From Halomicronema hongdechloris C2206 (GTDB taxonomy: Bacteria; Cyanobacteriota; Cyanobacteriia; Phormidesmidales; Phormidesmidaceae), in assembly GCF_002075285.3 (NCBI RefSeq), contig NZ_CP021983.2, positions 1 to 32,000 on the forward strand: DNA of 32,000 nucleotides, given 5' to 3'. Each line of letters starts with the position of its first letter. Positions within the stretch are counted from its first letter, which is position 1. The position numbers and the translations under genes were made by a program. Of this stretch, positions 1,929 to 31,734 are shown in pieces. The notes under the pieces were generated by a model that had not been told where the DNA came from, ran no database searches, and worked only from the letters and a program-made list of their open reading frames with translations.

Positions 1929-4484
1929 ATGATGATGGGGCGATCTCAGGCAAGTGGAATGCTGGCAATGATGCTGGTCGTCATGGGTACAGAATTACCT
2001 GTAGCTGCAACCGCTTCGGAACCTGCCGCTCTCATCGCCCAAGAACCCGAACCAGACGCCACGGCCCCCCTGGAGCGAGCCGAAGCGCTTAACCAGCAGG
2101 TGATTGAACTCTACCAAGCGGGACGGTATCAAGAGGCCATTCCCCTGGCAGAAGAAGCCTTAGCCATTCGGCGCCAGCAATTAGGAGAGCGCCATCCCGA
2201 TGTGGCCGCCAGCCTCAACAACCTGGCAGCGCTGTATGAGGCCCAGGGGCGCTATGGCGAGGCCGAGCCCCTCTATCAAGAATCCCTAGCCATTCGGCGC
2301 CAGCAGTTAGGAGAACGCCATCCCGCTGTGGCCCAAAGCCTCAACAACCTGGCATTGCTATATGTTGCCCAGGGGCGCTATGGGGAAGCCGAACCCCTAT
2401 ATCAAGAATCCCTCGCCATTCGTCGCCAGCAGTTAGGGGAGCGCCATCCCGATGTCGCCAGCAGCCTCAACAACCTGGCAGGGCTATATGTTGACCAAGG
2501 GCGCTATGGCGACGCCGAGCCCCTCTATCAAGAATCCCTAGCCATTCTGCGCGAGCAGTTAGGGGAGCGCCATCCCGATGTGGCCGCCAGCCTCAACAAC
2601 CTGGCCGCGCTGTATTATGCCCAGGGGAAAACCGCTCAGGCGGTGCGCAGCTTCCAGGCAGGCTTGGCCATCGAAGAGTGGCACCTGGAGATCAACCTGA
2701 CGACGCTGACAGAGGCCCAACGCCAGGACTACGCCGCCACCCTCTTCGGCACTACGGATGCGGCTATTTCCCTGTCGCTGCAATCGGCAGAGGCGCCACC
2801 CCTGGGGCTGACCACGTTGCTGCGGCGCAAGGGTCGCCTGCTGGAGGCGGGCAGCAGCAGTCTGCAACGCCTGCGCCAGAACCTCACGCCTGAAGACCAG
2901 ACCCTGCTAGACAACCTCATTGATGTGCGTCAGCAACTGGCAGCCCTCACCTTCAATCCCCCGGAAAACCTGCCACCGGAGGAGTACCGATCGCAACTCG
3001 CTGCCCTGGAACAGCAGGACAGTGACCTATCTGCCACCCTGGCTCGTCGCAGTGCTGTATTTCGAGTAGAAGCCGAACCCGTAGAGATTGCCGCAGTACA
3101 GGCCCAGATCCCAGCCGATGGGGTGCTGGTGGAATATGCCCGCTATCACCCCTTTGATGCTAAAGCTAATCCAGCTAACCGCTGGGGTGACCCTCGCTAT
3201 GCGGCCTACCTCCTCTTCCCCAATGGCCGCATTGAAGCCATCGACCTGGGCGATGCCGCTGCCATTGACACTGCCGTGCAAGCCTTCACCACCCTGCTGC
3301 AAGACCCCCGCGCCGACCTACGGGGCGATCCCGCCACCATCATCACCGAGATTGACCCCGACCGGATTGAGACGGTGACCAGCACCCTGCAGGCCCTGGT
3401 GTTGGATCCGATTGCACCCTATTTAGAGGGCCGTGAGCATCTGCTGATCTCTCCCGACAGCCAGCTCAACCGCCTGCCCTTTGAGGCCCTGCAGACGGAC
3501 GATGGTCGTTATCTGGTGGAGCAGTATCAAATCAGCTATCTCAACAGCGGTCGTGACCTGCTCAAATTCGACGTCCTAGATCCCAGCACAGCGCCCGCTG
3601 TCATTCTTGCCAATCCTGATTATGAGCAAGCCGCCCCTCGACTCCGCTCGGGGCTCGACTCGGTAACTGGAAGCTCCCCGAGCGGAGTCGTTGGCGAAGC
3701 TGCTCCGAAGGAGCTAGAGAGCCGGGGCGAGCAGTCGTCGAGCGGAGTCGAGCGGTCGTCGAGCGGAGTCGAGACGAACCGCCGCTCCACCGACCTCAGC
3801 CAACTTCAGGTCGAACCGTTACCCGGCACCGCCGCCGAAGCCGGAGCCATCCAACCCCTACTCCCCAACGCCACCGTCCTCACCGAAGACCAGGCCACCG
3901 AAAACGTGCTCAAGACCGTGCAGGCTCCCCGCATTCTCCACATCGCCACCCACGGCTTCTTCTTAGAAGATCAACCCATTCCAGTCGCCGAGGAGAGTCG
4001 TGGCCTCAGCCTGGCCGCGGCTGACGGGCTGCGGGCACTGCCCCGCTTAACGGCCCCGGTGGAAAATCCCCTGCTGCGCTCGGGTCTGGCCCTGGCCGGA
4101 TTCAACGCCCGCAGCAGCGGTGACGAAGACGGGGTCTTTACGGCTCTGGAAGCCGCTAACCTCAACCTGTTTGGCACCCAGCTGGTCGTCCTCTCTGCCT
4201 GCGATACCGGCTTAGGGGACATTGCCAATGGCGAAGGGGTCTATGGTCTACGGCGGGCCTTTGCCATCGCCGGGGCCGAGACCCAGTTGATGAGCCTCTG
4301 GCAGGTGAGCGATACCGGCACCCAGAGTCTGATGGCGCGGTACTACGAAAAGCTGATGGCGGGTATGGGCCGCAGCGAAGCCCTGCGGGCGGTGCAGCTC
4401 GAGATGATCCGCGAAGGTGGACAGTATAGTCGGCCCTACTACTGGGCGGCCTTCATCCTGGCAGGAGACTGGCGGCCGCTTTAG
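1929..4484 (+). CDS. TPR-repeat CHAT domain protein (caspase-fold protease), probable signal peptide
   Basis: 851-aa ORF. GGAGG lies 7 nt upstream of the ATG. The N-terminus has a hydrophobic stretch, GMLAMMLVVMG..VAATA. Four 42-aa kinesin-light-chain-type TPR units follow (LAIRRQQLGERHPDVAASLNNLAALYEAQGRYGEAEPLYQES). The C-terminal CHAT domain has an intact His/Cys pair (HIATHGFF, VVLSACDTGLG) and the tail YYWAAFILAGDW. Confidence 0.9.
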   Translation: MMMGRSQASGMLAMMLVVMGTELPVAATASEPAALIAQEPEPDATAPLERAEALNQQVIELYQAGRYQEAIPLAEEALAIRRQQLGERHPDVAASLNNLAALYEAQGRYGEAEPLYQESLAIRRQQLGERHPAVAQSLNNLALLYVAQGRYGEAEPLYQESLAIRRQQLGERHPDVASSLNNLAGLYVDQGRYGDAEPLYQESLAILREQLGERHPDVAASLNNLAALYYAQGKTAQAVRSFQAGLAIEEWHLEINLTTLTEAQRQDYAATLFGTTDAAISLSLQSAEAPPLGLTTLLRRKGRLLEAGSSSLQRLRQNLTPEDQTLLDNLIDVRQQLAALTFNPPENLPPEEYRSQLAALEQQDSDLSATLARRSAVFRVEAEPVEIAAVQAQIPADGVLVEYARYHPFDAKANPANRWGDPRYAAYLLFPNGRIEAIDLGDAAAIDTAVQAFTTLLQDPRADLRGDPATIITEIDPDRIETVTSTLQALVLDPIAPYLEGREHLLISPDSQLNRLPFEALQTDDGRYLVEQYQISYLNSGRDLLKFDVLDPSTAPAVILANPDYEQAAPRLRSGLDSVTGSSPSGVVGEAAPKELESRGEQSSSGVERSSSGVETNRRSTDLSQLQVEPLPGTAAEAGAIQPLLPNATVLTEDQATENVLKTVQAPRILHIATHGFFLEDQPIPVAEESRGLSLAAADGLRALPRLTAPVENPLLRSGLALAGFNARSSGDEDGVFTALEAANLNLFGTQLVVLSACDTGLGDIANGEGVYGLRRAFAIAGAETQLMSLWQVSDTGTQSLMARYYEKLMAGMGRSEALRAVQLEMIREGGQYSRPYYWAAFILAGDWRPL
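3639..3775 (+). repeat. In-frame palindromic and tandem repeat block inside the CHAT gene 1 linker
   Basis: A perfect 15-bp inverted repeat, CGACTCCGCTCGGGG (3639-3653) / CCCCGAGCGGAGTCG (3676-3690). A small hairpin GCTCC-gaa-GGAGC. A 21-bp tandem duplication GTCGTCGAGCGGAGTCGAG(cg/ac) at 3734-3754 and 3755-3775. GAGCGGAGTCG occurs three times. The block encodes the low-complexity stretch SPSGVVGEAAPKELESRGEQSSSGVERSSSGVET. Confidence 0.7.
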
Positions 4485-4507
4485 GCCCGGTTAGACGATG
4501 GCTTTCA

Positions 4508-4593
4508 AAAATGACGGTAGTAGGTCTCTCGAGGTAGCAGACTCATCACGCAAACAATCCTGGTCATGCCGGGCAAGCGCCCACACCTCACCC
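4508..4593 (-). repeat. Short-form member of the same palindromic repeat family
   Basis: AATGACGGTAGTAGGTCTCTCGAGGTAGCAGACTCATCACGCAAACAATCCTGGTCATGCCGGGCAAGCGC is the reverse complement of the segment GCGCTTGCCCGGAATGACGGG..GTAAGTCTGCTACCTCGAGAGACGGTAGTGG found in the long-form element. It lies 24 bp after the CHAT gene 1 stop. Confidence 0.6.
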
Positions 4594-4640
4594 AGCAAGA
4601 AAATGCTGTAACAATGGAGATGTCGCTTTAGGGGCAGATC

Positions 4641-4964
4641 ATGTACCAAACCGATCCTCCTCGACCGGCCCAGGAAACGCTGCCGACAATGTACGATTTG
4701 CCCAGCGACAATCCAGAGGAGCCAGGGTTGCCGGACGTTGGCGTCAGCCCGTCGCGAGACGTATTTCACGACATGCAGCCCCAGCTGCTGAAAGAGACCT
4801 GCCGACTCCCTGATGAACTGGCGGACAATGTCTTCTGCGGTACCGATCTAAATCTGTACTATGACACTCACCATCCCCAGTGGTACAAGCGCCCCGATTG
4901 GTTTTTGGTGCTGGGAGTGCCTCGGGCAAAACAGCAGCGAGATCTGCGCCTCAGCTATGTCATA
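4641..4964 (+). pseudogene. Uma2 (DUF820) family endonuclease, 3'-truncated
   Basis: TLPTMYDLPSDNPEEPGLPD..FHDMQPQLL..GTDLNLYYD..HPQWYKRPDWFLVLGV..DLRLSYVI matches the conserved N-terminal half of cyanobacterial Uma2 proteins. The catalytic half (E-x-K region) is absent. Homology stops at 4964 and the frame then runs through tandem repeats to a stop at 5078. VGVSPSRDV looks like a small extra insertion relative to the usual PDEFHD. Confidence 0.7.
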
Positions 4965-4981
4965 AGACTATGGTGGCTGGG

Positions 4982-5075
4982 TTCGCGGGCGTGGAAGCTT
5001 TGTTCGCTACTCTGGAAGGTTCCTTCGCGGGTGTGGAGGCTTTGTTCGCCACTCTGGAAGCTTCCTTCGCCGCCA
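4982..5075 (+). repeat. 42-bp tandem repeat, about 2.2 copies
   Basis: TTCGCGGGCGTGGAAGCTTTGTTCGCTACTCTGGAAGGTTCC starts at 4982, 5024 and 5066 (the last copy is partial), with 4 mismatches between full copies. In one frame it reads FAGVEALFATLEGS, repeated. Confidence 0.85.
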
Positions 5076-5077
5076 TG

Positions 5078-5258
5078 AACCAAACCTCCATCAATGAAAA
5101 TCTCTAGTCGCATAGACAAAATACTTGGTCAGAGGCCACTAACCAAACCTCCATCAATGGAAACCTTTAGTCGCATAGATAAAATACTTGGTTAGAGGTC
5201 GCGAACCAAATCTCCATCAATGCAGACCTTTAGTCGCATAGATAAAATACTTGGTTAG
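5078..5258 (+). repeat. 63-bp tandem repeat, 3 copies
   Basis: AACCAAACCTCCATCAATGAAAATCTCTAGTCGCATAGACAAAATACTTGGT.. starts at 5078, 5141 and 5204. The whole unit is repeated, and only about 10 nt at the unit junctions vary. Each unit contains TAGA(T/C)AAAAT and is bracketed by AACCAA..TTGGTT. Confidence 0.85.
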
Positions 5259-5382
5259 GCAGCGCCAATGACCCCTGCAGCGACGGTGAAGCTTAGGATG
5301 GCAGGATGAACTAAGGGTCTGGCGCTGCTGGAAAAGGGATACGCTTCCTGTTGCTAAGGTAATCCGGTGACGAATCCTGGCA

Positions 5383-5991
5383 TCATGCCTTGAGGATCAG
5401 GTCATAGCGGTTGCACTCATGCACTCGGCTAAACCGTTGTTGAATTTCTGGAACAGATTCCCCACGATACTGAGCAAAGACATGAATGGGCCTCAAACCA
5501 GGAATGCGACTGCCAAGGCACCCATCCACTTCATCATCTTGCAGGTAGACGTGGAGATAGGTGTCTACTTTCTGAAAGCCCTGGGCTTCGTACCACCTTA
5601 GCGTTGAGGCATCGTCGCGGGTCCAGGCTTCGAAGCGTTGGATGTGGGACTGTTGGGCCATGGCAATGGCCACCTTCAACAGCGCTGTTCCAACCCCCCG
5701 TCGTCGATAGTCCGGATGAACCGCAATATTCCAGATCATCCCGGCTTTGCCCGTCGCGGTTGAATGTTTTGGGGGTGAGCAGACACTACCGGGTACCGTT
5801 TCACATTCGACATCGATGAGGCCAATGATGTGCTGGTCGAGTGTGGCAACCAGTTCAATTGATGGATTGGAGTAGTGTTCCTTCTGCCGCAGCACATTGT
5901 CGAAGTAGGCCGTGTCCAAGAAGGCCAGGACCCGGCAGCGCAGCCACTGGGGTTCATCAGCGGGTTGATAGCGGCAAATGCTCCAGTCCAT
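5383..5991 (-). CDS. GNAT family N-acetyltransferase
   Basis: 202-aa ORF with the acetyl-CoA binding motif IAVHPDYRRRGVGTALL and the downstream WYEAQGF, typical of GNAT. Confidence 0.85.
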   Translation of the reverse strand: MDWSICRYQPADEPQWLRCRVLAFLDTAYFDNVLRQKEHYSNPSIELVATLDQHIIGLIDVECETVPGSVCSPPKHSTATGKAGMIWNIAVHPDYRRRGVGTALLKVAIAMAQQSHIQRFEAWTRDDASTLRWYEAQGFQKVDTYLHVYLQDDEVDGCLGSRIPGLRPIHVFAQYRGESVPEIQQRFSRVHECNRYDLILKA

Positions 5992-6046
5992 AACGGTTCA
6001 GCGAAAATACACCTACCCTATTGCCTCACCCTGCCATGGACACTTT

Positions 6047-6115
6047 CCGCACGAAAAAGAGTTCCGTCATTCCGGGCAAGCACAGCGCGACCTGGAATCC
6101 AGTAGAGGGCTCTGC
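6047..6115 (-). repeat. Short or degenerate member of the palindromic repeat family
   Basis: CCGCACGAAAAAGAGTTCCGTCATTCCGGGCAAGCACAGCGCGACCTGGAATCCAGTAGAGGGCTCTG matches the reverse complement of the long-form right half and the copy at 9250-9310. Weaker similarity may continue to about 6180. Confidence 0.55.
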
Positions 6116-6229
6116 AGTCGATAGACATCTCTAAAGCCTCGCCGCGCAGAGAATGGCTGAAGTTCGGTGCATCACACCTCGCGGTGATAGCCCTCTACCC
6201 TCCTTATCTCTGCCAAAATTCATCCAATC

Positions 6230-6259
6230 TTGAATAAGTTTCCCCGGCTCAGACATATA
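6230..6259 (+). promoter_or_regulatory. Conserved upstream box, copy upstream of CHAT gene 2
   Basis: tTGAATAAGTTtccccGgcTCAGAcATAta. It ends 23 nt before ATG 6281 and 38 nt before the alternative ATG 6296. That 38-nt distance equals the one at CHAT gene 1. Confidence 0.5.
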
Positions 6260-6280
6260 GGCTGATGTAAACTCCCCAGG

Positions 6281-9154
6281 ATGGAGCAAGCTCCCATGCA
6301 CTACCCGGCCAAGCTACTGAGTTTAGTGGCTCTTACAACTTTGGCAATGACGACTGTCCAGTTACCAGCCTTTTCTCAAGAACCGAGAGATGCTTACCGT
6401 CTAGCGGCGACTGAGACAAAAACTGAGACGAACCAAGCCAACGAGCAAGGGACTTTACTGCTTGAGGTAGAAGGCATTTTAGAAGTAGGGGATAATACTC
6501 TTGAAAGCGGGAGATTGATTGATGGTCATCAATTTGAAGGGCAGGCTGATCAAATAATCACTATACGCCTTACTAGTGATGAGTTTGATCCGTTTCTCGC
6601 TGTTTTGGAGCCCAGCGGGCAAGTACTTGGTAGTCGAAATAACATAAGTGTATCTAATCTTAATGCTGCTTTGACTATCAGATTACCTAAAAGTGGCACA
6701 TACTTAGTCGGCGTAACTATAGGCTCAGATGACATAAGCGCACAAGGCCAATATCGACTGACTGTAGCTGAGGCAACTACAACGGAAATAAGCAAAGCAG
6801 AAGCTGAACGCTTACTTCAGCTTGGAATTGAGCAATATCAGACTGCTCGACTCCGAGAAGCTATACAGTCATGGGAACAAGCCCTCATTACTTATCGTGA
6901 GATTGACGATCGCCAAGGGGAAGCCGTCGTTCTGGGAAACTTGGGCGTTGCTTATCGTGATTTGGGTGACTATCAGCAGGCTATCAATCTCCATGAGCAA
7001 GCGCTTTTTATTTTCCGTGAAATTGGCAATCGCTTCGGAGAAGTTAGCTCCCTACTTAACTTAGGCGGCGATTACGAAAGCCTAGGCAACTATCAGCAAG
7101 CTATAAACCTACATGAGCAGAGTCTCACCATAGCCCGCGAAATCAATGATCGCGCTGGGGAGGGTAACTCTTTGCGCGGCTTGGGCGCTGCTTATCGTAA
7201 CTTAGGTCAATATCAGCAAGCTATCGAATTCTATGAGCAAAGTCTTGCCATTATCCGCGAAATTGGTGACCGCCTAGAAGAAACTCGCGCCCTATTAGGT
7301 TTGGGAGTTACTCACTATGATCTCGGTAACTATGAAAGGGCCATTGAATTCTATGAGCAAAGTCTTGCCATTATCCGCGAAATTGGTGATCGCCTAGAAG
7401 AAGCTCGCGTCCTCGGGAATTTGGGTAATGTTTCTAGGACCCTGGGTCAATATCGGCAAGCTATTGATCTCTATAAACAGCGTTTAACTATCGCGCGCGA
7501 AATTGGTGATCGGCCTGGTGAAGCCGCAGCTCTACTTGGTATGGGCAACACTTATAGTAAGCTAGGCAACTATGAACAGGCTATTGACCTCTACAGGCAA
7601 AGCCTTGCTATTACCCGCGAAATTGGCGATCGGCCTGGCGAAGCCATGTCTCTTCATAACCAGGGTTTGACCTTTATGAATACAGGCCAACTTCCCCAGG
7701 CAGAATCAGTGTTGCGTCAGTCCATAGAAGTCTTTGAATCCCTCCGCACAAACCTTCCCGATAACCAGCTCATCTCTATCGCCGATACCCAGGCAAGGGC
7801 ATACGCTAACCTAGAGCGTGCCTTAACTGCCCAAGACAAGACAGCTGAAGCCCTTGCCATTACTGAGCGAGGCCGGGCTCGTGCATTTGTGTTGCAGCTG
7901 GCCAGTCGCCTAGCCACTCCAGAAGAGCAGGCGGCCCTGGCCGATAGCCCTATTGCTGAGGCTCCTACCGTCGCTGAGATCCAACAGATCGCCCGCAACA
8001 CCAACACCACTCTGGTCACCTACTCCCTCATCTTCGACCAGGCCCTCTATATTTGGGTGGTGCAGCCGTCGGGGGAGATTCAATTTCGCTCGGTCGAGTT
8101 CAATGGCGCTGGCGGTTCTGGGGTGGTGGTCAATCCCATTGCCGCCATTGATGGCCCGGTCTATCGAGGCACTGACGACCCGTCCGAGTTAGATAGCCTG
8201 GTGGCTGACTCCAGGGCTGGCATTATTGTCGAGCGCACGGGAACCAATCCAGCCCAACTGCAGGAGCTGCATCGGGTCTTGATCGAGCCCATTGCCGCTC
8301 TATTGCCCACCGATCCAGAAGAGAAAGTAGCCTTCATTCCCCAGGGCAACTTGTTTTTGGTGCCCTTTGCCACCCTACAAGACGACGACGGCACGGCCCT
8401 GATCGAAAAACACACTATTCTGACTGCTCCGTCGATTCAGGTCTTCGGCTTGGCCAATGACGTCAGTGGGGAGCCAACAGATGTCAGTAGCTCCCTAAGC
8501 GCCAGCGGCGATGGCGCCCTGATTGTGGGGAATCCAGTGATGCCGACAGTGTGGGCCCCTACGGCCAGCGGTGACTTTGGCGAAATTCAACTGGCGGACT
8601 TGCCAGGGGCTAAACGAGAGGCGGAAGCCGTGGGCGATGTCTTTGGGGTGCCAGTGCTGACAGGCAATCAGGCCACTGAGGCCACCGTAAAGCAACGGTT
8701 GCCAGCAGCCCAGCTGATTCATCTGGCTACCCACGGTCTACTGGAATATGGCGACCCCCAATCCTCTGGGGTTCTGGACGTGCCCGGTGCCGTGGCCTTA
8801 ACGCCCGGGTCAGGGGAAGACGGCTTGCTCACCGCTGCCGAAATCCTGGAAATGAAGTTGCAGGCGGAGTTGGCAGTGCTCAGTGCTTGCGACACCGGGC
8901 GCGGACGCATCACTGGCGATGGCGTGGTGGGGCTGTCTCGGGCCTTGATCACTGCCGGCGTCCCCAGTGTGATTGTGTCCCTGTGGGCGGTGCCCGATGC
9001 CCCTACGGCCATGCTAATGACGGAGTTTTACCGCCAGCTAGACCAAGGGCACGACAAGGCTCAGGCCCTACGGCAGGCCATGTTGATCACCCGGGAGCAG
9101 CATCCTAATCCCAGGGCTTGGGCCGCCTTTAGCCTCATGGGGGCTGCGAATTGA
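6281..9154 (+). CDS. PPC-domain / TPR-repeat / CHAT domain protein (caspase-fold protease), probable signal peptide
   Basis: 957-aa ORF. An alternative start at ATG 6296 has GGAG 9 nt upstream. The signal-like stretch is KLLSLVALTTLAMTTVQLPAFS. A pre-peptidase C-terminal-like beta domain follows (GDNTLESGRLIDGHQFEGQADQIITIRL..DPFLAVLEPSG..GTYLVGV..GQYRLTV). About ten 40-aa TPR units follow (GNLGVAYRDLGDYQQAINLHEQALFIFREIGNRFGE). The C-terminal CHAT domain has HLATHGLL and AVLSACDTGRG. Confidence 0.9.
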   Translation: MEQAPMHYPAKLLSLVALTTLAMTTVQLPAFSQEPRDAYRLAATETKTETNQANEQGTLLLEVEGILEVGDNTLESGRLIDGHQFEGQADQIITIRLTSDEFDPFLAVLEPSGQVLGSRNNISVSNLNAALTIRLPKSGTYLVGVTIGSDDISAQGQYRLTVAEATTTEISKAEAERLLQLGIEQYQTARLREAIQSWEQALITYREIDDRQGEAVVLGNLGVAYRDLGDYQQAINLHEQALFIFREIGNRFGEVSSLLNLGGDYESLGNYQQAINLHEQSLTIAREINDRAGEGNSLRGLGAAYRNLGQYQQAIEFYEQSLAIIREIGDRLEETRALLGLGVTHYDLGNYERAIEFYEQSLAIIREIGDRLEEARVLGNLGNVSRTLGQYRQAIDLYKQRLTIAREIGDRPGEAAALLGMGNTYSKLGNYEQAIDLYRQSLAITREIGDRPGEAMSLHNQGLTFMNTGQLPQAESVLRQSIEVFESLRTNLPDNQLISIADTQARAYANLERALTAQDKTAEALAITERGRARAFVLQLASRLATPEEQAALADSPIAEAPTVAEIQQIARNTNTTLVTYSLIFDQALYIWVVQPSGEIQFRSVEFNGAGGSGVVVNPIAAIDGPVYRGTDDPSELDSLVADSRAGIIVERTGTNPAQLQELHRVLIEPIAALLPTDPEEKVAFIPQGNLFLVPFATLQDDDGTALIEKHTILTAPSIQVFGLANDVSGEPTDVSSSLSASGDGALIVGNPVMPTVWAPTASGDFGEIQLADLPGAKREAEAVGDVFGVPVLTGNQATEATVKQRLPAAQLIHLATHGLLEYGDPQSSGVLDVPGAVALTPGSGEDGLLTAAEILEMKLQAELAVLSACDTGRGRITGDGVVGLSRALITAGVPSVIVSLWAVPDAPTAMLMTEFYRQLDQGHDKAQALRQAMLITREQHPNPRAWAAFSLMGAAN

Positions 9155-9184
9155 AGAGCGCTTTGTAAGCAGCCGATATGGTCT

Positions 9185-9310
9185 CCCTGGATTCCTGCTG
9201 CCGCGGGAATGACAGTAGTACGTTTATTGCGAGCAGCAGACTAATCGCGAAAAAGAATTTTGTCATTCTGGGCAAGCGCAGCACCACCCAGCCTCCAGTA
9301 GAGGGCTCTG
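9185..9310 (-). repeat. Short-form member of the palindromic repeat family
   Basis: CCCTGGATTCCTGCTGCCGCGGGAATGACAGTAGTA..GCAGCAGACTAATCGCGAAAAAGAATTTTGTCATTCTGGGCAAGCGCAGC..CCAGTAGAGGGCTCTGG. It has the same module order as the 4508 copy. The degenerate CTGAGATATAGG and CTGAGATCAC motifs at 9371-9412 may belong to it. It starts 31 bp after the CHAT gene 2 stop. Confidence 0.6.
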
Positions 9311-9861
9311 GGGCCAGTAGCAAGCTGGCAACCAGCCAGCTCAATCGGCCTCGGGTGAATAGGTTCGACCTGCTGAGATATAGGAACCTTTAGAGCACAC
9401 AACCTCTGAGATCACAGCCTACTGTCACCTATCGATAGTGGCCATGGCCTAGGTCCATCCAGCCTACAGGGTGATCCATCTATGAACTCCCATCAGGTCA
9501 GGAATCATGCCCCCATTTAATCAGGTGCCCTACCTCCGTCAACTGTTGAGAAGAATCGCAGCGGCTTCAGGGTTACTGGTATCAGCAGACGGCGTCCCCT
9601 GACTCCCTTGCGGTGCAGGTGCCCAATGGGTCGTCAGTCGGAGGGTTAGGAGTGCTGGGCCTATGGTTTCTGGGGCAACGGCTGCTGCAGGCTGGCGTCT
9701 CAGAACACTGAATCTTAGACCTTGGCTAAACCTTTTAAGAAGTAAGAGTCAAAGCAGGTACCGGGGACGGCTTCACTGTAATATCGCGTTTGTCAGGTAG
9801 CTTCTCCGGTTTTAGGGCATTGGACGCTACGTTCTGTCGTTTTTTCCACCAGAGTGCAAGA

Positions 9862-9891
9862 GTGAATAAGTTCATCGGCCTCAGAGATATA
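9862..9891 (+). promoter_or_regulatory. Conserved upstream box, copy upstream of the YbjN-like gene
   Basis: gTGAATAAGTTcatcgGccTCAGAgATAta. It ends 36 nt before ATG 9926. Confidence 0.5.
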
Positions 9892-9925
9892 CCCCTATGA
9901 CGTTACCCGACATCTTCTAAACATC

Positions 9926-10468
9926 ATGAAAAAAACAATCCCCAGCTTACTTGCCCTGACCACTGCCACCGTTGGCCTGGTCCTATGGCAACCCCACCTG
10001 GTCCCGGTCTCTGTGGCTCAGGTCACCCCCCAGCAAGACAGTTCCCAGGGTAGTCCCGACCCGAGAGTGCAAGCTGCCCTCGATGGTCTGGGCTTCAACT
10101 ACGAAATTCAAGATAGCGGCGCCTTTAGAATCGGGCTGCGCTTCGAAGACGGACGCACCCAGGTAGCCTTTATTAGCTCTGGCACTAGCACCCTGGGCGA
10201 TTTGGAAATCCGAGATATTACCTCGCCAGTTAACGTTACCGATGGTCCTCTATCGGCCGAGACGGCTAACCAGCTGTTACAGGATAATGCCAGCAAAAAG
10301 TTAGGGGCCTGGCAGACGGTTGAACTCAGCGATCAACGCCATCTCACCATGTTTACTGCCCGCATCGATGCCAATAGCAGCCCCGAGCAACTACAGTCTG
10401 CTCTCTATGGGGTGCTCTACACTGCCGATGCCATGGAAGCCGAGCTCTCCGACAGCGATCGCTTCTAG
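9926..10468 (+). CDS. Secreted YbjN-like (type III secretion chaperone-fold) protein
   Basis: 180-aa ORF. The signal peptide is MKKTIPSLLALTTATVGLVLW..VSVA-QV. The body, LDGLGFNYEIQDSGAFRIGLRFEDGRTQVAFI..LLQDNASKKLGAWQ..ADAMEAELSDSDRF, resembles the YbjN family pattern, including the C-terminal D.F. The family call is from memory. Confidence 0.55.
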   Translation: MKKTIPSLLALTTATVGLVLWQPHLVPVSVAQVTPQQDSSQGSPDPRVQAALDGLGFNYEIQDSGAFRIGLRFEDGRTQVAFISSGTSTLGDLEIRDITSPVNVTDGPLSAETANQLLQDNASKKLGAWQTVELSDQRHLTMFTARIDANSSPEQLQSALYGVLYTADAMEAELSDSDRF

Positions 10469-10591
10469 GGTACGGTGCCGTGAGCGGTTTCGCCTGAGCA
10501 CCCTGAACAGGGGCATCTACTGAATGCCCTAAACCGTTATCTCCTAGTATTTGTGTCTAATCTACGAACATCCTGACGAGGATAATCCCCC

Positions 10592-12898
10592 ATGAAACGT
10601 CGTCATTTCCTTCAATTCGCCGGGTCTACCCTGGCCGCCATCGGCCTCAGCCAAGCCGATTTTCTCCGCCAAGCCAATCACTACGGCAAGGCCCTGGCCC
10701 AGAACACCAACCGCAAATTAGCCCTGCTGATCGGCATTAATAACTATCCCGACCCCACCATTAGCAACCTCAATGGCTGCCTCAACGATGTGGAGATGCA
10801 GTATCAGTTGCTGGTGCACCGCTTTGGCTTTAAGCCCAGCGACATTCTTGTAGTGAGTGACACGGCTGATATGCAACCTAGCCGGGCCAATATTCTCCAG
10901 GCCTTTGAGGAGCATTTGATCCAGCGAGCTAGACCAGGGGATGTGGTGGTGGTGCACTATTCCGGCCATGGAGGGCGGGTGGTAGACCCGGATCCGATTG
11001 TGGTGCAAGCCTGCCCCCAATACAACCGGGAGCTTGAAGCGGAAGTCGGTCTCAACGGCACCCTGGTGCCCAATGACCCCATGGCTGCCAACCAATCAGG
11101 CCGGGAGTTGGTGGTGCCCGACATCATGGGGCGCAGCTTGTTTTTGCTGATGGAGCGCATCAACACCGATAACCTGACGGTGGTACTAGATAGCTGCTAT
11201 TCAGGGGCCGGCACCCGCGGCAATGCCCGGGTGCGAGCGGTGGACTCCCGTCTCAGTCGCAGCGCCGACACCCTGGTGGCCAGCGAGGATGAATTTGACA
11301 ACCAAGAACGCTGGTTAAAAAAACTGAACTTAAGCGAGACCGAATTCCATCAGCAGCGGGCTCGGGGCATTGCCAGGGGCGTCACCCTGGGTTCGGCCAG
11401 TTGCAACCAATTGGCCTTCGAGATGCCCTTTAGCGACCAGTTCACGTCTGGGACCTTTACTTATCTGTTGACCAGTTACCTATGGCAATCTCCTGCAACC
11501 CAGGTGGCGGAAACGGTGCAGGCCAACCTGGTGCGCAGCACCCGCACCACGGTCACCAGTGGCACCCAGATTCCGGTCTTTGAGTATGAACCGGGTAGCA
11601 ACTATGGCCAGAAACCTCTGTATTTCTCTTCGATCGCAACTCCCTTCGCCGCTGGGGTGGTGACCAATGTGACGGGGGAGCAGCTTCAGGTCTGGTTGGG
11701 AGGCGTCTCCCATGCCAATTTAGATCGGGCGGCGGCGGGGAGTATCTATACCCTGATTGACGGGGATGGCCATCCCCTGGCAGATATGGTGCTAGAGCAA
11801 CGGCAGGGGCTTCTGGGCTTTGGCAAACTGGCTGCGGGTCAGTCAATCTCTGTGATTGCAGGGATGTTGGTGCGGGAGAAGGTGCTAGCCATTCCTGACC
11901 CGGTGCTCAGGGTGGGTATTGATGCGTCCTTAGCCGATGAAGCCGAGCCAGCTCAGGCAGCTCTGGAGTCGGCCCTGGTCACGGCGATTGCGTCGGGGGA
12001 GACCACTAGTCGCATCGTCGTAGCACCAGTGGGTGAACCGATGGAGTATTTGCTGGCTCGTACCACTGAGACCATTCAGGCAGAACTGCGGCAGACGGGA
12101 GTAGAGACTCCGCCTCCCTTGGGCACGGTGGCTCTATTCGCACCGGATTTCTCCGCCGTGGTGCCCAATACCTTCGACCGGGTGGATGAGCCAGTGACCG
12201 TGGCGGTGACACGGTTACGCCCGCGCTTGAAATCTCTATTAGTGGGTAAAGTACTGAAGGACCTGGCCGTGACTACCTCAGATCTGCGGGTCAGTGGTGA
12301 GGCCTTTGATGCCAGTGGCCGTGGGGTGGCCGTACCGATTGTGCACCAGGGGGCCACGGGCCGTGCTGATACCCGGGTGGCCACCCAGGCGTTTCGCACC
12401 AATGAGGAGATTAAGATTCGGGTTCGGAATCAGGAAAATGATCCGGTCTATCTGAGTGTGTTGGGCATCGGCAGCGATGGCCAGATTGTGGTGCTGCAAC
12501 CGGCTAACTGGAATGACCCGGTAGAGGCGGCTCGGGTGGATGAAGATGAGGAACTGGTAGTCCCTACTGCTGAGGATGGGGTGCGATTCCGAGTGGCCGG
12601 GACAGGTTACATCGAGCTGATTACTTTGGTGAGTCGGGCCCCCTTGCGAGGGTTATTGCAGAGTCTGCAAACGATTTCTCGGGGGGCCGGCCGCGATCGC
12701 GGCTTTGTCGGTCTGGAAGAGGGGGATCCCTTAGATGTGGTCAGGGGATTGTTGGGGGATGTGGATGCAATTTCACGCTCTCGCAATACCACTAGCATTT
12801 TGGTGGAAGCCACTGAGGATAAGTCAGTGGTGGATTCTGATGCGATCGCAACGTTTTCCACCGTCATCGAGATCGTCGCCGACCCCAATGGCCCATGA
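10592..12898 (+). CDS. Orthocaspase/metacaspase-like peptidase C14 with Tat signal and C-terminal DUF4384
   Basis: 768-aa ORF. The twin-arginine motif is MKRRHFLQFAGSTLAAIGLSQA. The caspase p20-like core is KLALLIGINNY..LNGCLNDV..VVHYSGHGG (His)..VVLDSCYSGAG (Cys). The C-terminal segment EEIKIRVRNQENDPVYLSVLGIGSDGQIVVLQP..GYIELITLVS fits DUF4384. Confidence 0.9.
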   Translation: MKRRHFLQFAGSTLAAIGLSQADFLRQANHYGKALAQNTNRKLALLIGINNYPDPTISNLNGCLNDVEMQYQLLVHRFGFKPSDILVVSDTADMQPSRANILQAFEEHLIQRARPGDVVVVHYSGHGGRVVDPDPIVVQACPQYNRELEAEVGLNGTLVPNDPMAANQSGRELVVPDIMGRSLFLLMERINTDNLTVVLDSCYSGAGTRGNARVRAVDSRLSRSADTLVASEDEFDNQERWLKKLNLSETEFHQQRARGIARGVTLGSASCNQLAFEMPFSDQFTSGTFTYLLTSYLWQSPATQVAETVQANLVRSTRTTVTSGTQIPVFEYEPGSNYGQKPLYFSSIATPFAAGVVTNVTGEQLQVWLGGVSHANLDRAAAGSIYTLIDGDGHPLADMVLEQRQGLLGFGKLAAGQSISVIAGMLVREKVLAIPDPVLRVGIDASLADEAEPAQAALESALVTAIASGETTSRIVVAPVGEPMEYLLARTTETIQAELRQTGVETPPPLGTVALFAPDFSAVVPNTFDRVDEPVTVAVTRLRPRLKSLLVGKVLKDLAVTTSDLRVSGEAFDASGRGVAVPIVHQGATGRADTRVATQAFRTNEEIKIRVRNQENDPVYLSVLGIGSDGQIVVLQPANWNDPVEAARVDEDEELVVPTAEDGVRFRVAGTGYIELITLVSRAPLRGLLQSLQTISRGAGRDRGFVGLEEGDPLDVVRGLLGDVDAISRSRNTTSILVEATEDKSVVDSDAIATFSTVIEIVADPNGP

Positions 12899-19784: not shown

Positions 19785-20966
19785 ATGGCACACTCTGGCT
19801 CTCAATCGTGGGATTTGGGACGGTTTCTCAAAACCATGGCATTTTTTAATGTCATTCCTCTACTCAGTCGCATGAATCCCCTGCAAACGTCTGAGCCAGC
19901 CCGGGCATCATCAACATCGGATGCGGAGATATCGTTCCAGCCCTCGGTGGTGGTGGTCGGCGACTTGGCAGCTCCTATGAGTCGTGGGCTGGTGCAGGAG
20001 TTGCGTACGGAGATGATTCCAGTGCGGTCATATCCCTGGCCGCAGATGTCTCCAGATGGTGCACAGGCAATATCCTCGCCCGACCCTGTGCCTAGCTCGG
20101 CCCAGTCCCTATCCCCCTGGGAAACCATCTTAGTCAATGCGGCCTTAGTGATTGTCTGTTGGGACGCAGGACAGCCCCTATCGACCTTAGGTGGAGCAGT
20201 GGTAGGAACGGCGAGCCAAGAACAGGTTTTGTTTGACTACCGATCTCCCCAGGCGGCATTGTCTGAGCGCTGGGGCGCCCTAGACGATGTGGTCATGGGG
20301 GGGGTTAGTGCCAGTCGGTTTGACTGGGCTGATGGGGCGGCTGTCTTTCGAGGGCGAGTATCTACAGCCAACTCTGGCGGCTTTGCCTCGGTTCGCACTC
20401 GCAATGCAGACCCTGCTTATGACCTAGGCGCCTGGCACGGCATTGCTCTGCGGCTCAAAGGGGATGGCCAACGCTACAAGCTGATTCTCCGGCAAGATTC
20501 GGGGTGGGATAGCGTTGCCTATTGCCAGTCTTTTGATACTCTTGCCGGTCACTGGCAAACCGTGCATCTTCCTTTTGCTGCCATGGTTCCCACCTTTAGG
20601 GCCAAGCGAGTTAGTGGGGCTCCGCCACTAGATCCAAGCCGCATTCGCTCCATGCAGCTGATGCTGAGCAAATTTGAATATGATGGGGCGTTGAATCCTA
20701 CCTTTACTCCCGGGGATTTTGAGTTACAGGTGAAGACCATCGGGGTTTATCGACCGGTGCCAGTCCCCCCGGTTTGGGTGTTGACTCCAACTGCTCCGGG
20801 CCAGGCGAAGGAGCTAGAGGATGACAAGATGCGCCTGATTACGGCTGTGACTCCCCCTTGGTCAGCATCAGACGCTGGGGATGCCCTATCAGAGCAGCAA
20901 AAAGATTGGCTACCCCGCGTCGATGCCCTATGTCGGCAGGTGGTCCGGTCTATCTCGGCTGATTAA
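19785..20966 (+). CDS. CIA30 (complex I intermediate-associated protein 30) domain protein
   Basis: W.ALDDVVMGGVS.S......A.F.G.VST.N.GGFASVRT....P.DL....GI.LR.KGDG.RYK..LR..........Y...F....G.W.....PF is the CIA30 pattern. The N-terminal 150 aa are poorly conserved. Confidence 0.8.
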   Translation: MAHSGSQSWDLGRFLKTMAFFNVIPLLSRMNPLQTSEPARASSTSDAEISFQPSVVVVGDLAAPMSRGLVQELRTEMIPVRSYPWPQMSPDGAQAISSPDPVPSSAQSLSPWETILVNAALVIVCWDAGQPLSTLGGAVVGTASQEQVLFDYRSPQAALSERWGALDDVVMGGVSASRFDWADGAAVFRGRVSTANSGGFASVRTRNADPAYDLGAWHGIALRLKGDGQRYKLILRQDSGWDSVAYCQSFDTLAGHWQTVHLPFAAMVPTFRAKRVSGAPPLDPSRIRSMQLMLSKFEYDGALNPTFTPGDFELQVKTIGVYRPVPVPPVWVLTPTAPGQAKELEDDKMRLITAVTPPWSASDAGDALSEQQKDWLPRVDALCRQVVRSISAD

Positions 20967-26964: not shown

Positions 26965-28347
26965 ATGACTTTTCCTACTGATCTCCGGCACCTATCCTCC
27001 ACTCCAGTCTTCAGCAACGCTATTACCCGCATGGGGCAACCTCTGATTATAGCCATAGTAGCCTTGGGCCTCCCCGTCCAGCTTGGAGGCGAACCGGCCC
27101 AAGCTGAGATGGACGATAGCTTCGAAGACAGCTATAAGGTAACCCTGGATGAAGCCTGGCAGATTGTTCACCGGGAATACGTTGACAACAGCTTTAACCA
27201 CGTCGATTGGCAAGCTACCCGTCAGCGCCTATTGGGGCGCGAATACACCTCACGGCAGCAAGCCTATGCTGCCCTCAGGGGCGCCCTACGCCAACTCGAT
27301 GATCCCTACACTCGCTTTCTCGAGCCCGAGGAATATGCGGCCTTGACCGAACAGACCGCAGGTGAGGTGTCTGGCATTGGCTTGCGGTTGCGCCGAGATA
27401 GCAGCACCCAGACAGTTTTAGTCACAGAGGTCGTCCCTGACTCTCCGGCTGATGAGGCTGGCCTGCAGGTAGGAGACCATATTGTCATGGTGGATGGCCA
27501 ATCGACTGAGCGCCTGACGGCAGAAGGGGTGTCTCAGCTGTTGCGGGGAGCCGACAGTAGTCAAGTCACCCTCAGCATCTCTCGCAACGGTGGCCAACCT
27601 CGCACCCTGATTCTCCACAGAACCCGCTTAGAAGTCTCTAGTGTCGAATATCGAGTCACTCAGCAAGGCAATCGTCGGCTTGGCTATGTGCGGCTGCTAG
27701 AATTCAATGCCCACTCCACCGAACAGATGGCCGCAGCAATCGAGGCGTTGATGGATCAACAGGTCGAGGGCTTTATTCTGGATCTACGAGACAATCCAGG
27801 GGGATTGCTGCAGGCTAGCATTGAAATTAGCCGACTGTGGTTGCAGCGAGGGGCCATTGTGCGCACTCAAGACCGTGATGGACAGCAGGAGTCGATTTTA
27901 GCTAATCGCACTGCGTTGACTGATCTACCCTTGACAGTCTTAGTAGACGGCCGCTCCGCCAGTTCCAGTGAAATCTTGACAGGGGCCCTGCGCGACAATG
28001 ATCGAGCCACGGTGGTGGGAAGCCCCACCTTCGGTAAGGCCCTAGTGCAATCCCTCCATGGACTCTCCGATGGCTCAGGTCTGACAGTGACGGTGGCGCA
28101 TTACTACACTCCCAATGGCACCGATATTAGCCGTAAGGGTATTGCACCGGATGTGGTGGTTACTCTGTCAGAGCAAGAGCGCCGCACCCTGTTCAACAAT
28201 CCCCAACGATTGGGAACCGAGGCCGATCCCCAGTATATGAGGGCGGCTAATTTGCTAGACCAGATCATTGCAGCCCAGGAGCAATCGCCTCAGCAAGCCA
28301 CAAGCACAGAACCTTCCTCCAGTCGCCTGGGTCAGGTTGCTAATTAA
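26965..28347 (+). CDS. Carboxyl-terminal processing protease (peptidase S41A, Ctp)
   Basis: LDDPYTRFL. PDZ domain: GIGLRL..V..VVPDSPADEAGLQVGDHIV.VDG. LDLRDNPGG. Catalytic residues: GRSASSSEILTGAL (Ser) and TFGKALVQS (Lys). The start could instead be the downstream MGQPL. Confidence 0.9.
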   Translation: MTFPTDLRHLSSTPVFSNAITRMGQPLIIAIVALGLPVQLGGEPAQAEMDDSFEDSYKVTLDEAWQIVHREYVDNSFNHVDWQATRQRLLGREYTSRQQAYAALRGALRQLDDPYTRFLEPEEYAALTEQTAGEVSGIGLRLRRDSSTQTVLVTEVVPDSPADEAGLQVGDHIVMVDGQSTERLTAEGVSQLLRGADSSQVTLSISRNGGQPRTLILHRTRLEVSSVEYRVTQQGNRRLGYVRLLEFNAHSTEQMAAAIEALMDQQVEGFILDLRDNPGGLLQASIEISRLWLQRGAIVRTQDRDGQQESILANRTALTDLPLTVLVDGRSASSSEILTGALRDNDRATVVGSPTFGKALVQSLHGLSDGSGLTVTVAHYYTPNGTDISRKGIAPDVVVTLSEQERRTLFNNPQRLGTEADPQYMRAANLLDQIIAAQEQSPQQATSTEPSSSRLGQVAN

Positions 28348-30586: not shown

Positions 30587-30900
30587 GCTTTAGAGACTGT
30601 CTCGAGGATCTGCCCTCGACAGTTGTCCCTGGCGGAAGCTAGGTCGATAGTCCATTAACTGCATTTGGGTAAGTTCAGGTCAAGGGTGTTTACGAAGGTA
30701 CTCAGCCATAGCCTAGTCTCAGCATAAACTCAGATTATGCCAGCCTTAGCGGCTGCTGGATTTATGTTAGGTCATGGCATGGTGTCTTCTCCATTCTCAC
30801 TCGAAGCCAGGCTTACCCCTTCACCGCATGTCAGAGCCATATTTCCATTGATTGAATACCTACGCTGACAGAGATTTTTTATATCGATTTGAGGTTGACC

Positions 30901-31734
30901 ATGAGGTATCGTGCCCTATTAGTTGCGTTCTTGGCTCTCTGCCTGAGTGTCTTGACGGCTTGCAGCGAAGGCCCGGTCGCAACGAGTGATGCTCCCCTGA
31001 CCTACGATCAGATCAAGGACACGGGGCTGGCGAATAAATGTCCCCAGATTTCGTCCACCCGTCGTGGTGATATCCCCCTTGAGCAGGATCGGTCCTACAA
31101 AATTGTAGACATGTGCCTGGAACCCACTAGCTATTTCATCAAGGAGGAGCCCACCAGTAAGCGTAAGGAAGCGGAGTTTATTCCTGGTAAGATCCTGACT
31201 CGCAAGACGTCGAGTCTAGACCAGGTATTTGGCGATCTGGTGAAAGAAGATGATGATAGTCTCACCTTCTATGAGAAGGGCGGCTTCGATTTCCAGGCAA
31301 CGACTGTACAACTACCTGGTGGTGAGCAAGAGCCCTTCCTGTTTACAGTGAAGGGACTGGTGGCGCACTCTCAGCCAGGATTGGCAGCCGTCACGACTTC
31401 TACCGACTTAGAGGGTGATTATCGGGTACCGTCCTACCGCACCTCTAATTTCCTCGATCCCAGAGGTCGTGGTCTGGCCACTGGCTATGACGCAGCAGTA
31501 GGACTTCCGGCCCGCAGTGACAGTGAAGAACTGCGTCGAGAAAACACCAAAGCCTTCGACGTAGGGCAAGGTCATATCTCCCTACAGATTTCTCAGATAG
31601 ATGGCTACACCGGTGAAATCGCCGGCACCTTCGAGGCACTACAGCCCTCTGACACTGATCTGGGAGCCGATGAGCCGGTTGATGTAAAGATTCAAGGATT
31701 CTTCTATGGCCGGGTGGAGTCATCGGAAGCCTAG
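30901..31734 (+). CDS. psbO: Photosystem II manganese-stabilizing polypeptide PsbO
   Basis: The lipoprotein-like signal is MRYRALLVAFLALCLSVLTAC. LTYDQIKDTGLANKCP, CLEP.S.F.KEE, FQ.T.VQLPGGE..PFLFTVK.LVA, VPSYR.SNFLDP.GRG..TGYD.AV.LPA, GEI.G.F...QPSDTD.GA.EP.DVKIQG.FY.R are typical. GAGG lies 6 nt upstream of ATG 30901. The ORF track opens at TTG 30889. Confidence 0.95.
   Translation: MRYRALLVAFLALCLSVLTACSEGPVATSDAPLTYDQIKDTGLANKCPQISSTRRGDIPLEQDRSYKIVDMCLEPTSYFIKEEPTSKRKEAEFIPGKILTRKTSSLDQVFGDLVKEDDDSLTFYEKGGFDFQATTVQLPGGEQEPFLFTVKGLVAHSQPGLAAVTTSTDLEGDYRVPSYRTSNFLDPRGRGLATGYDAAVGLPARSDSEELRRENTKAFDVGQGHISLQISQIDGYTGEIAGTFEALQPSDTDLGADEPVDVKIQGFFYGRVESSEA

Follow-up and report, generated by a model that had tools for sequence, protein, structure and literature searches.

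The 32,000 nucleotides (nt) of DNA analyzed here, hereafter the window, are positions 1-32,000 of contig NZ_CP021983.2 from the cyanobacterium Halomicronema hongdechloris C2206. They contain a cluster that encodes two TPR-CHAT proteases (CHAT1 and CHAT2), an orthocaspase that combines a Peptidase_C14 (C14) domain with DUF4384, and a small YbjN-like protein. We hold, with moderate confidence, that this cluster represents a conserved neighborhood, probably a regulon, of extracytoplasmic proteases, the core of which is a Sec-exported TPR-CHAT protein together with a C14-DUF4384 orthocaspase that has an intact catalytic dyad and is exported by the twin-arginine translocation (Tat) route. The four genes are as follows.

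1929-4484, + strand: CHAT1, TPR and CHAT domains, 851 amino acids (assigned by Pfam)
6281-9154, + strand: CHAT2, TPR and CHAT domains, 957 amino acids (Pfam)
9926-10468, + strand: YbjN-like / type III chaperone-fold protein, 180 amino acids, XM38_000070 (fold, identical sequence)
10592-12898, + strand: orthocaspase, Peptidase_C14 and DUF4384, 768 amino acids, XM38_000080 (Pfam, identical sequence)

Both TPR-CHAT proteins score above cut-off for the CHAT domain (PF12770; 288 bits in CHAT1 and 234 bits in CHAT2) and for TPR_12 (248 and 202 bits, respectively). In CHAT1, the TPR region covers approximately residues 50-250 and the CHAT domain residues 485-847, the latter with an intact His-Cys dyad in the motifs HIATHG at 671-676 (His675) and SACDTG at 756-761 (Cys758). 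This CHAT domain is 74% identical to its counterpart on L001, one of four contigs from close relatives (L001-L004) used for comparison, and the CHAT1 ATG is preceded by a GGAGG Shine-Dalgarno sequence 8 nt upstream. CHAT2 has a PPC-like module at approximately residues 83-146, TPR repeats at approximately 175-500, and a CHAT domain at 659-955, and its dyad is likewise intact (HLATHG at 814-819, His818; SACDTG at 868-873, Cys870). The real start of CHAT2 is likely to be Met6, at position 6296, because a GGAG sequence lies 9 nt upstream and this start agrees with that of the orthologue. The PPC-like module falls just short of the cut-off (24.3 versus 25.9 bits); a close relative's CHAT1 orthologue has a PPC domain that exceeds it, at 32.8 bits. 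PPC domains are typical of secreted proteases.

The orthocaspase matches PF00656 over residues 41-331 (63.6 bits, with a cut-off of 21.4) and DUF4384 over residues 601-683 (37.8 bits), with beta-rich domains in the middle. Its dyad is contained in YSGHG at 123-127 (His126) and DSCYSG at 200-205 (Cys202), and both catalytic residues are invariant across 31 orthologues; Asp66 and Asp200 are invariant as well. The AlphaFold2 (AF2) model has a predicted local distance difference test score (pLDDT) of 81, and Foldseek matches it to the metacaspase AtMC4 with E = 3e-14, and also to AtMC9, Yca1, and MALT1. An Arg-rich loop at residues 205-218, disordered and of low confidence in the model, follows directly after Cys202 and contains the invariant residues R209, G210, and R215. 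From its sequence and modeled disorder, this loop is a plausible processing site, which would fit zymogen control without proving it. Together with Asp66 and Asp200, it provides the only hints of cleavage after Arg/Lys and of autoprocessing. The family to which the protein belongs is large, conserved over its full length, and found in Leptolyngbya- and Nodosilinea-type cyanobacteria. An initial annotation of the window, made by reading the sequence, had described two TPR-CHAT proteins and one C14 orthocaspase with intact His/Cys dyads, and the motifs and above-cut-off Pfam matches given here bear this out.

The three proteases and the YbjN-like protein all look exported, judging from their N-termini. 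Export calls were made with a home-made test for n-, h-, and c-regions on the N-terminal sequence, which was positive for CHAT1, CHAT2, and the YbjN-like protein, as well as for PsbO and a 516-residue open reading frame (ORF), and negative for GlgP, RecJ, GST, GNAT, and DUF4058. The test errs both ways, because it flagged a CIA30-domain ORF at 19785-20966, a possible false positive, and missed CtpA. The Sec-type signal of CHAT1 is predicted to be cleaved after residue 29 (ATA/SEP) and that of CHAT2 at AFS/QEP, and the signal peptide of the YbjN-like protein after residue 31 (SVA/QV). The orthocaspase carries a twin-arginine leader at residues 1-36 (KRRHFLQ-FAGSTLAAIGLS-...-ALA/Q) with a weakly hydrophobic h-region and an AxA site. 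Residues 1-30 pass the TIGR01409 TAT_signal_seq profile (18.5 bits against a 16.7-bit cut-off; 19.1 bits for an orthologue), and residues 1-60 give a borderline 16.5 bits. Of the 120 best database homologues, 116 keep the leader, KRRHFLQFAGSxLAAxGLSQ...ALAQ; the other four look like fragments that lack the N-terminus (three of them are either short or labeled partial). The twin-arginine motif is present in 72 of 76 orthocaspase orthologue ORFs from metagenomes. At the predicted cleavage sites (ATA/S, AFS/Q, SVA/Q, and ALA/Q), a small residue always precedes the cut, and Gln follows it in CHAT2, the YbjN-like protein, and the orthocaspase. No transmembrane-like segment was found beyond the N-terminus in any of the four proteins, nor is there a 19-residue hydrophobic segment elsewhere in the orthocaspase. 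The export-type N-termini that the initial annotation assigned to all four proteins are thus upheld, by the n/h/c test for three of them and by TIGR01409 and the 116/120 conservation of the Arg pair for the orthocaspase. We also note that, at many loci, signal peptides of TPR-CHAT, trypsin-like, 235-residue, and YbjN-like proteins very often end in (V/I)(L/I)AQ or xAQ, which gives a predicted mature N-terminal Gln.

These N-termini bear on a different reading of the locus, namely that its products, cytoplasmic or anchored in the inner membrane, belong to a conflict system of the EACC/CATRA caspase type that acts in cell death or against phage, in which the N-terminal hydrophobic stretches would be anchors or the result of miscalled starts. 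A weak NCBIfam match to "caspase, EACC1-associated type" (50 bits against a cut-off of 140), a generic caspase match in PADLOC, and the presence close by in relatives of an EACC2-like CHAT-CHASE2/DUF1822 module (PMC8195603) all point in this direction. However, good Shine-Dalgarno sequences stand at the starts and the N-termini are conserved, all four proteins start like signal peptides and have AxA-type sites, there is a PPC domain, and the orthocaspase matches the Tat profile. The window, moreover, contains no NTPase, TIR, nuclease effector, or CRISPR component, and we regard this alternative as very unlikely. The initial annotation had listed gasdermin, CRISPR, cyclase, and NTPase partners as missing, and among the window ORFs we likewise find none of these, nor a CRISPR-like array or Cas7-11. 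Membership in a known defense system was considered and set aside, as PADLOC returned only generic TPR and caspase matches for the window. Craspase (type III-E Csx29, a TPR-CHAT protein) and separase have the TPR-CHAT fold and dyad in common with CHAT1 and CHAT2, and in both a partner controls activity allosterically; they are, however, cytoplasmic and regulated by RNA or securin, whereas the window lacks Cas7-11, a CRISPR array, and Csx30/31.

The pairing of the two protease types recurs well beyond Halomicronema. We compared orthocaspase neighborhoods in a sample of 84 loci (four named contexts and 80 metagenome loci), with genes labeled by phmmer. A CHAT-family gene lies no more than 3 kb from the C14-DUF4384 gene at 22 of the 31 loci that have at least 3 kb on both flanks (71%), and these well-flanked loci share only 34-62% identity. 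Over the 84 loci, CHAT density per 10 kb is 1.35 within 3 kb of the orthocaspase gene versus 0.21 beyond 5 kb, a 6.5-fold local enrichment which argues that the random density of CHAT paralogues, raised as a caveat in the initial annotation, does not explain the adjacency. Leptolyngbya BL0902 and PCC 6406 are named examples of the arrangement. The neighboring TPR-CHAT proteins share the predicted export signal: 32 of 39 have signal-peptide-like starts compared with 49 of 172 control ORFs (p = 1.3e-9), and many of the signal-negative ones look truncated, since their first residues already fall within TPR repeats, at a contig end or close to one. Other secreted proteases occur in the same surroundings. 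Trypsin-like proteases recur near C14-DUF4384, with signal-peptide-like starts in all seven that were scored, and S8 subtilases are found near C14-DUF4384 or TPR-CHAT genes at 9 of the 84 loci and on L006, one of the further contigs with YbjN-like genes (which include L005); the one S8 N-terminus read is signal-peptide-like by eye. Examples of the recurrent subtilases are L043:817-3012, L065:7761-9875, and L006:7621-9912. In the close relatives L001-L004, the order 313-residue protein gene, YbjN-like, C14, GST, GlgP is kept.

The genes in the window are further connected by a box, TGAATARGTT-N8-TCAGASATA, of which there are 5 copies in 32 kb versus 0.01 expected, all of them on the + strand and in the first 10 kb. 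This agrees with the shared upstream box reported in the initial annotation. The copies are as follows.

343-369, + strand: orphan box in the duplication 1-369 = 1522-1890, with a degenerate CHAT1 start after it
1864-1890, + strand: box TGAATAAGTTCTGATGCTTCAGAGATA, ending 38 nt upstream of the ATG of CHAT1; its orthologue in L001 is at 2909
6231-6257, + strand: box ending 38 nt before CHAT2 Met6; orthologous box in L002 at 907
9356-9382, + strand: box before the remnant of the 313-residue protein gene (sequence match)
9863-9889, + strand: box ending 36 nt upstream of the YbjN-like ATG; counterparts in L001 at 9938, L002 at 4984, and L006 at 3900

The copies at 343 and 1864 are both part of a single 369-nt duplication. 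The box is kept at orthologous positions in relatives with 88% and ∼70% nucleotide identity. The similarity between copies ends at 27 nt, the flanks being variable. The orthocaspase gene itself lacks a box. Because the 123-nt gap that separates it from the YbjN-like gene contains neither a box nor a terminator-like site, and because a terminator-like hairpin (9822-9834) lies just upstream of the YbjN-like box, the two genes are probably co-transcribed as an operon.

For a wider survey, a weight matrix was built from the Halomicronema-lineage copies only and scanned over the 84 independent loci, with 60 column-permuted matrices as the control. At a threshold of at least 16 bits, there are 26 matches versus 1.5 ± 1.3 for the permuted matrices, and 11 matches immediately precede a C14, TPR-CHAT, TPR, or trypsin-like gene versus 0.05 in the controls. 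At a threshold of at least 12 bits, the box precedes 19 of 151 family genes versus 11 of 458 other genes (p = 5e-6), and these other genes mostly encode proteins with signal peptides (PPC proteins that stand alone, TPR proteins, S8 subtilases, and trypsin-like proteins). We infer that the box may be a promoter or operator of a type other than sigma-70. That it is a canonical sigma-70 promoter can be discarded, since a consensus scan gave no call there, and so can the idea that it is part of a known RNA, since the window has 0 Rfam matches. Stand-alone secreted PPC-domain proteins with a box upstream are exemplified by L039:2335-2793 and L041:810-1304. Negative signal predictions, a lack of synteny, and paralogue density were the outcomes that the initial annotation had set against its own proposal; we find export signals, the box, and a wide recurrence of TPR-CHAT with Tat-C14-DUF4384 in their place. 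Its observation is confirmed and its interpretation partly supported.

The remaining genes of the region are relevant to a second alternative, and are listed here.

477-1235, - strand: DUF4058 (Pfam)
4641-5078, + strand: 145-residue ORF without a Pfam match, the 5' part of a Uma2 gene (comparison with the intact gene in a relative)
5383-5991, - strand: GNAT (Pfam)
9507-9708, + strand: remnant of a gene for a 313-residue Pro/Ser-rich membrane or secreted protein (tblastn)

According to this alternative, abundant paralogues (CHAT, caspase, Uma2, DUF4058, and toxin-antitoxin genes) have accumulated by repeat-mediated rearrangement in a variable genomic island, so that adjacency would be meaningless and the box would be a duplicated promoter fragment. 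Rearrangement is plain to see. CHAT2 sits exactly between 63-nt direct repeats (6052-6114 and 9248-9310), and L001, which has the CHAT1 orthologue, an intact Uma2 gene, and GNAT, lacks CHAT2 exactly between the repeats; an orthologue is present in L002. Because it is flanked by repeats and absent from L001, CHAT2 is a dispensable cassette, and the fixed set of three proteases envisaged in the initial annotation does not stand. A direct duplication of 369 nt (1-369 = 1522-1890), with 100% identity over its first 300 nt, lies on both sides of the DUF4058 gene and looks like a recent insertion or duplication event. Two genes are remnants: Uma2 is a 5' fragment of what is an intact 247-residue gene in L001, and the 313-residue protein gene, intact in L001-L004, is internally deleted, with only residues 1-27 and 270-310 detected by tblastn. 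Insertion sequence (IS) elements surround the L006 locus, and the YbjN-like gene stands beside C14 in the Halomicronema lineage only. Against the island speak both the synteny (TPR-CHAT beside C14-DUF4384 in 71% of well-flanked loci despite 34-62% identity, and the 6.5-fold enrichment) and the box, whose likeness stops at 27 nt, whose flanks vary, and which is found before the same families in unrelated contigs. As an account of the whole cluster, we consider the island improbable.

Some further features of this region are recorded for completeness. Repeats of ∼50-64 nt resembling miniature inverted-repeat transposable elements (MITEs) lie in both orientations in intergenic positions at 113-188, 1634-1709, 4524-4580, 6039-6114, and 9171-9310. 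The Uma2 fragment (4641-5260) runs into 21/42-nt tandem repeats at 4981-5071 and then into three 63-nt tandem repeats at 5072-5258. The intact 313-residue protein (L002:3876-4817) has a transmembrane segment at the N-terminus and, at the C-terminus, a hydrophobic tail with basic residues after it, which resembles a PEP-CTERM-type sorting signal; in the window, only the two ends of its gene are left, and the upstream box is retained. GNAT, GST, and the 313-residue protein were rejected as cluster members, each being found at 0 of 84 orthologous loci. With Uma2 truncated and DUF4058 inside a duplication, the GNAT and nuclease-like genes that the initial annotation had left as possible members are no longer counted among them. 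Downstream of the orthocaspase gene are GST, GlgP, and other housekeeping genes, and the rest of the window, including GlgP and RecJ, is ordinary core genome without further caspase-fold genes; PsbO-like (30889-31734) and CtpA-like (26965-28347) genes were recognized there by eye from their translations. A 1597-residue ORF in L115 that seemed to fuse C14 to TPR-CHAT, and so to offer a Rosetta stone for their association, proved to be an out-of-frame artifact running into a separate downstream TPR-CHAT gene.

Several elements of the system proposed here have precedents. For the anti-sigma factor DdvA of Myxococcus, a periplasmic TPR-CHAT has a solved structure, and because this TPR-CHAT with a canonical His-Cys dyad resides in the periplasm, an extracytoplasmic CHAT is already documented (PMC11506125). 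DdvA spans the membrane once, carries a zinc anti-sigma domain on the cytoplasmic side, and is paired with an extracytoplasmic function (ECF) sigma factor, whereas CHAT1 and CHAT2 have only a cleavable-type signal of ∼30 residues, with neither an anti-sigma domain nor an adjacent sigma gene, and are paired with an orthocaspase. Their signals of 29-32 residues are followed directly by PPC or TPR, and no sigma gene occurs in the window at 1-14 kb. Tat-like leaders have been proposed for the YS pseudo-orthocaspases of cyanobacteria and were presented as distinguishing them from active orthocaspases (PMC6426788). In those inactive variants an RR...AxA extension has been described; the window orthocaspase, which has the C14 p20-like domain in common with cyanobacterial orthocaspases such as MaOC1, combines the extension with the intact His126/Cys202 dyad. 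A 2012 paper remarked on possible signal peptides in prokaryotic metacaspases (PMC3501461), and C14+DUF4384 architectures have been tabulated, without localization, for 23 proteins in 132 strains (PMC8283722). The premise of the initial annotation that characterized caspase-like proteases of bacteria act solely in the cytoplasm is thus out of date (PMC11506125, PMC6426788, PMC3501461). Our findings are not wholly new, as the periplasmic TPR-CHAT of DdvA and the Tat-like leaders of pseudo-orthocaspases were known; what seems new is the conserved pairing of secreted TPR-CHAT with Tat-orthocaspase and the box, for neither of which we found a published description in the literature searched.

A third alternative concerns regulation. 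Neighborhoods of EACC2-caspase/CHASE2 with DUF1822 and an ECF sigma factor were described by Kaur et al. in 2021 (PMC8195603), and a comparable module of CHAT/caspase-CHASE2, DUF1822, and a sigma-like protein is a frequent neighbor of C14-DUF4384 and lies near the cluster in relatives. In the loci that we sampled, the module takes the form unk455 - DUF1822 - CHAT/CHASE2 - secreted 235-residue protein, where unk455 denotes a family of ∼455 residues without a Pfam match that stands beside DUF1822 and CHAT-CHASE2 (L035:10377-11738, L005:1436-2821, and four more loci). The family has conserved Cys residues and, at the C-terminus, a sigma-70 region-4-like helix-turn-helix (HTH), with weak matches at E = 0.03-0.1, and unk455 is probably the "ECF sigma" of EACC2 systems. 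Unlike those systems, the window proteins have no EACC2, CHASE2, or transmembrane segments beyond the signal peptide, and none of the module genes is present in the window; H. hongdechloris does have an orthologue of the 235-residue protein, at 74% identity. Small genes beside C14 were also considered as sigma factors and rejected, since Pfam gave RRM, Uma2, DUF4351, or nothing, and no sigma domains.

The cluster could accordingly be pictured as the output arm of caspase-based transmembrane signaling, in which a CHAT/caspase-CHASE2 sensor, DUF1822, and ECF-like unk455 would sense an envelope signal and drive the box-bearing genes for exported proteases. This picture draws on the position of the module (adjoining C14-DUF4384 at 11 of the 84 loci, beside the YbjN-like gene in L005, and no more than ∼3 kb away from the CHAT1 orthologue in L001), on the HTH of unk455 together with the published ECF sigma and DUF1822 neighborhoods (PMC8195603), on a box that is not of the sigma-70 type, and on the DdvA-DdvS precedent (PMC11506125). 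It is hard to reconcile with the absence of the module from the window and from within 7 kb of most C14-DUF4384 loci, with the lack of a box both upstream of the module genes (0 of 33 at a threshold of at least 10 bits) and anywhere in L005, and with the weakness of the HTH matches. We doubt that the cluster is such an output arm. Were unk455 to read the box, filamentous cyanobacteria would possess a caspase-gated transmembrane pathway that, once triggered at the envelope, induces exported Tat-orthocaspase, TPR-CHAT, S8, and trypsin-like proteases. These would form an extracellular or periplasmic caspase cascade for conflict, for fratricide, or for remodeling of the filament and sheath, a prospect that we likewise rate as slim.

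Against PF10722, the YbjN-like protein of the cluster scores 16.3 bits, below the gathering score of 22, over a match that spans the full profile, and its relatives score 12.4-20.7 bits over nearly the whole profile. Its AF2 model has pLDDT ∼90 over residues 45-180 and <50 for residues 1-29. Foldseek matches the model at probability 1.0 to 5fr7 (AmyR), 8q8o, 6vu7 (YbjN), and 1jyo (SicP), with target-normalized template modeling (TM) scores of 0.54-0.65, and by name the structural matches comprise AmyR, YbjN of E. coli, PA14_16140, and, among type III chaperones, SicP, SigE, SycH, CesT, and ExsC. Because of these matches, the name "YbjN-like" is correct at the level of the fold. The structure predictions suggested in the initial annotation therefore gave a YbjN/type III chaperone fold here and a metacaspase fold for the orthocaspase, but the YbjN-like protein remains below the Pfam YbjN cut-off. 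YbjN/AmyR and class I type III secretion chaperones have the alpha-beta3-alpha-beta2-alpha fold in common with the window protein; known members of those groups are cytoplasmic, whereas its clade bears signal peptides. All eight family members compared have a variable hydrophobic N-terminus followed by a conserved mature domain.

A general role for this protein as a protease partner is ruled out beyond the Halomicronema lineage. Outside that lineage, a YbjN-like gene adjoins C14-DUF4384 at 0 of 84 loci, and a genome-wide scan gave 28 YbjN-like relatives or loci outside cyanobacteria, mostly in Stenotrophomonas, Pseudidiomarina, and Planctomycetota, with unrelated neighbors (ClpA, amidoligase, MipA, GH116, ClpP, etc.) and without caspases. 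Of the arrangement proposed in the initial annotation, the recurrence of TPR-CHAT with Tat-C14-DUF4384 in many cyanobacteria stands and the YbjN-like component does not. More distant YbjN-like genes (61-63% identity) again adjoin CHAT genes, in rearranged loci. The YbjN-fold clade with signal-peptide-like N-termini is found in L007-L032 (Stenotrophomonas, Pseudidiomarina, Planctomycetota, and Cloacimonadota), and a Thermostichales member (L033) is without a signal. The most economical reading is that lineage-specific secreted accessories are added to the protease core and that, in the window, the accessory is this chaperone-fold protein.

Several observations weigh against a conserved, co-regulated set of exported proteases. 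Of the control ORFs, 28% are flagged by the n/h/c test. Conservation of the Tat leader is unusually high, and its c-region is long and charged; the leader may be a pro-segment or an anchor that is not cleaved. Approximately 30% of the well-flanked C14-DUF4384 loci have no CHAT neighbor, and gene content is fluid, with CHAT2 in some relatives only, gene remnants, and scattered MITE-like repeats. The box does not fit the sigma-70 consensus, is recognizable in only ∼10-30% of family genes outside the Halomicronema lineage, and was not found in L005.

If the cluster is nonetheless a regulon of exported proteases, the following course of events can be proposed. The box, acting as a non-sigma-70 promoter or operator, would turn on CHAT1, CHAT2, and the YbjN-like/C14 operon together. 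The CHAT proteins would pass the membrane unfolded via Sec and be cut after A29 (CHAT1) and S32 (CHAT2), while the orthocaspase would fold in the cytoplasm, pass via Tat, and be cut after A36. In the compartment so reached, which may be the periplasm, the lumen, or the medium, the proteases would cleave envelope or extracellular proteins or one another; we favor zymogen activation, via the conserved Arg-rich loop after Cys202, as the relationship between them. In the Halomicronema lineage, the secreted chaperone-fold protein may have been recruited as a binder or inhibitor; elsewhere, comparable slots are occupied by secreted proteins of the trypsin-like, S8, PPC-only, or TPR-only type.

Bacterial caspase-fold proteases have been discussed almost exclusively as cytoplasmic executioners of cell death or immunity. 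The work described here defines a widespread family of intact orthocaspases with Tat leaders, habitually paired with signal-bearing TPR-CHAT proteins and other secreted proteases, and a cis element common to them that is a candidate regulatory motif to follow. Leptolyngbya sp. BL0902 is a genetically tractable strain, and experiments look feasible because the orthologous locus is present in it. Together, these genes provide a testable set for caspase-type proteolysis in the periplasm, thylakoid lumen, or extracellular matrix of multicellular cyanobacteria.

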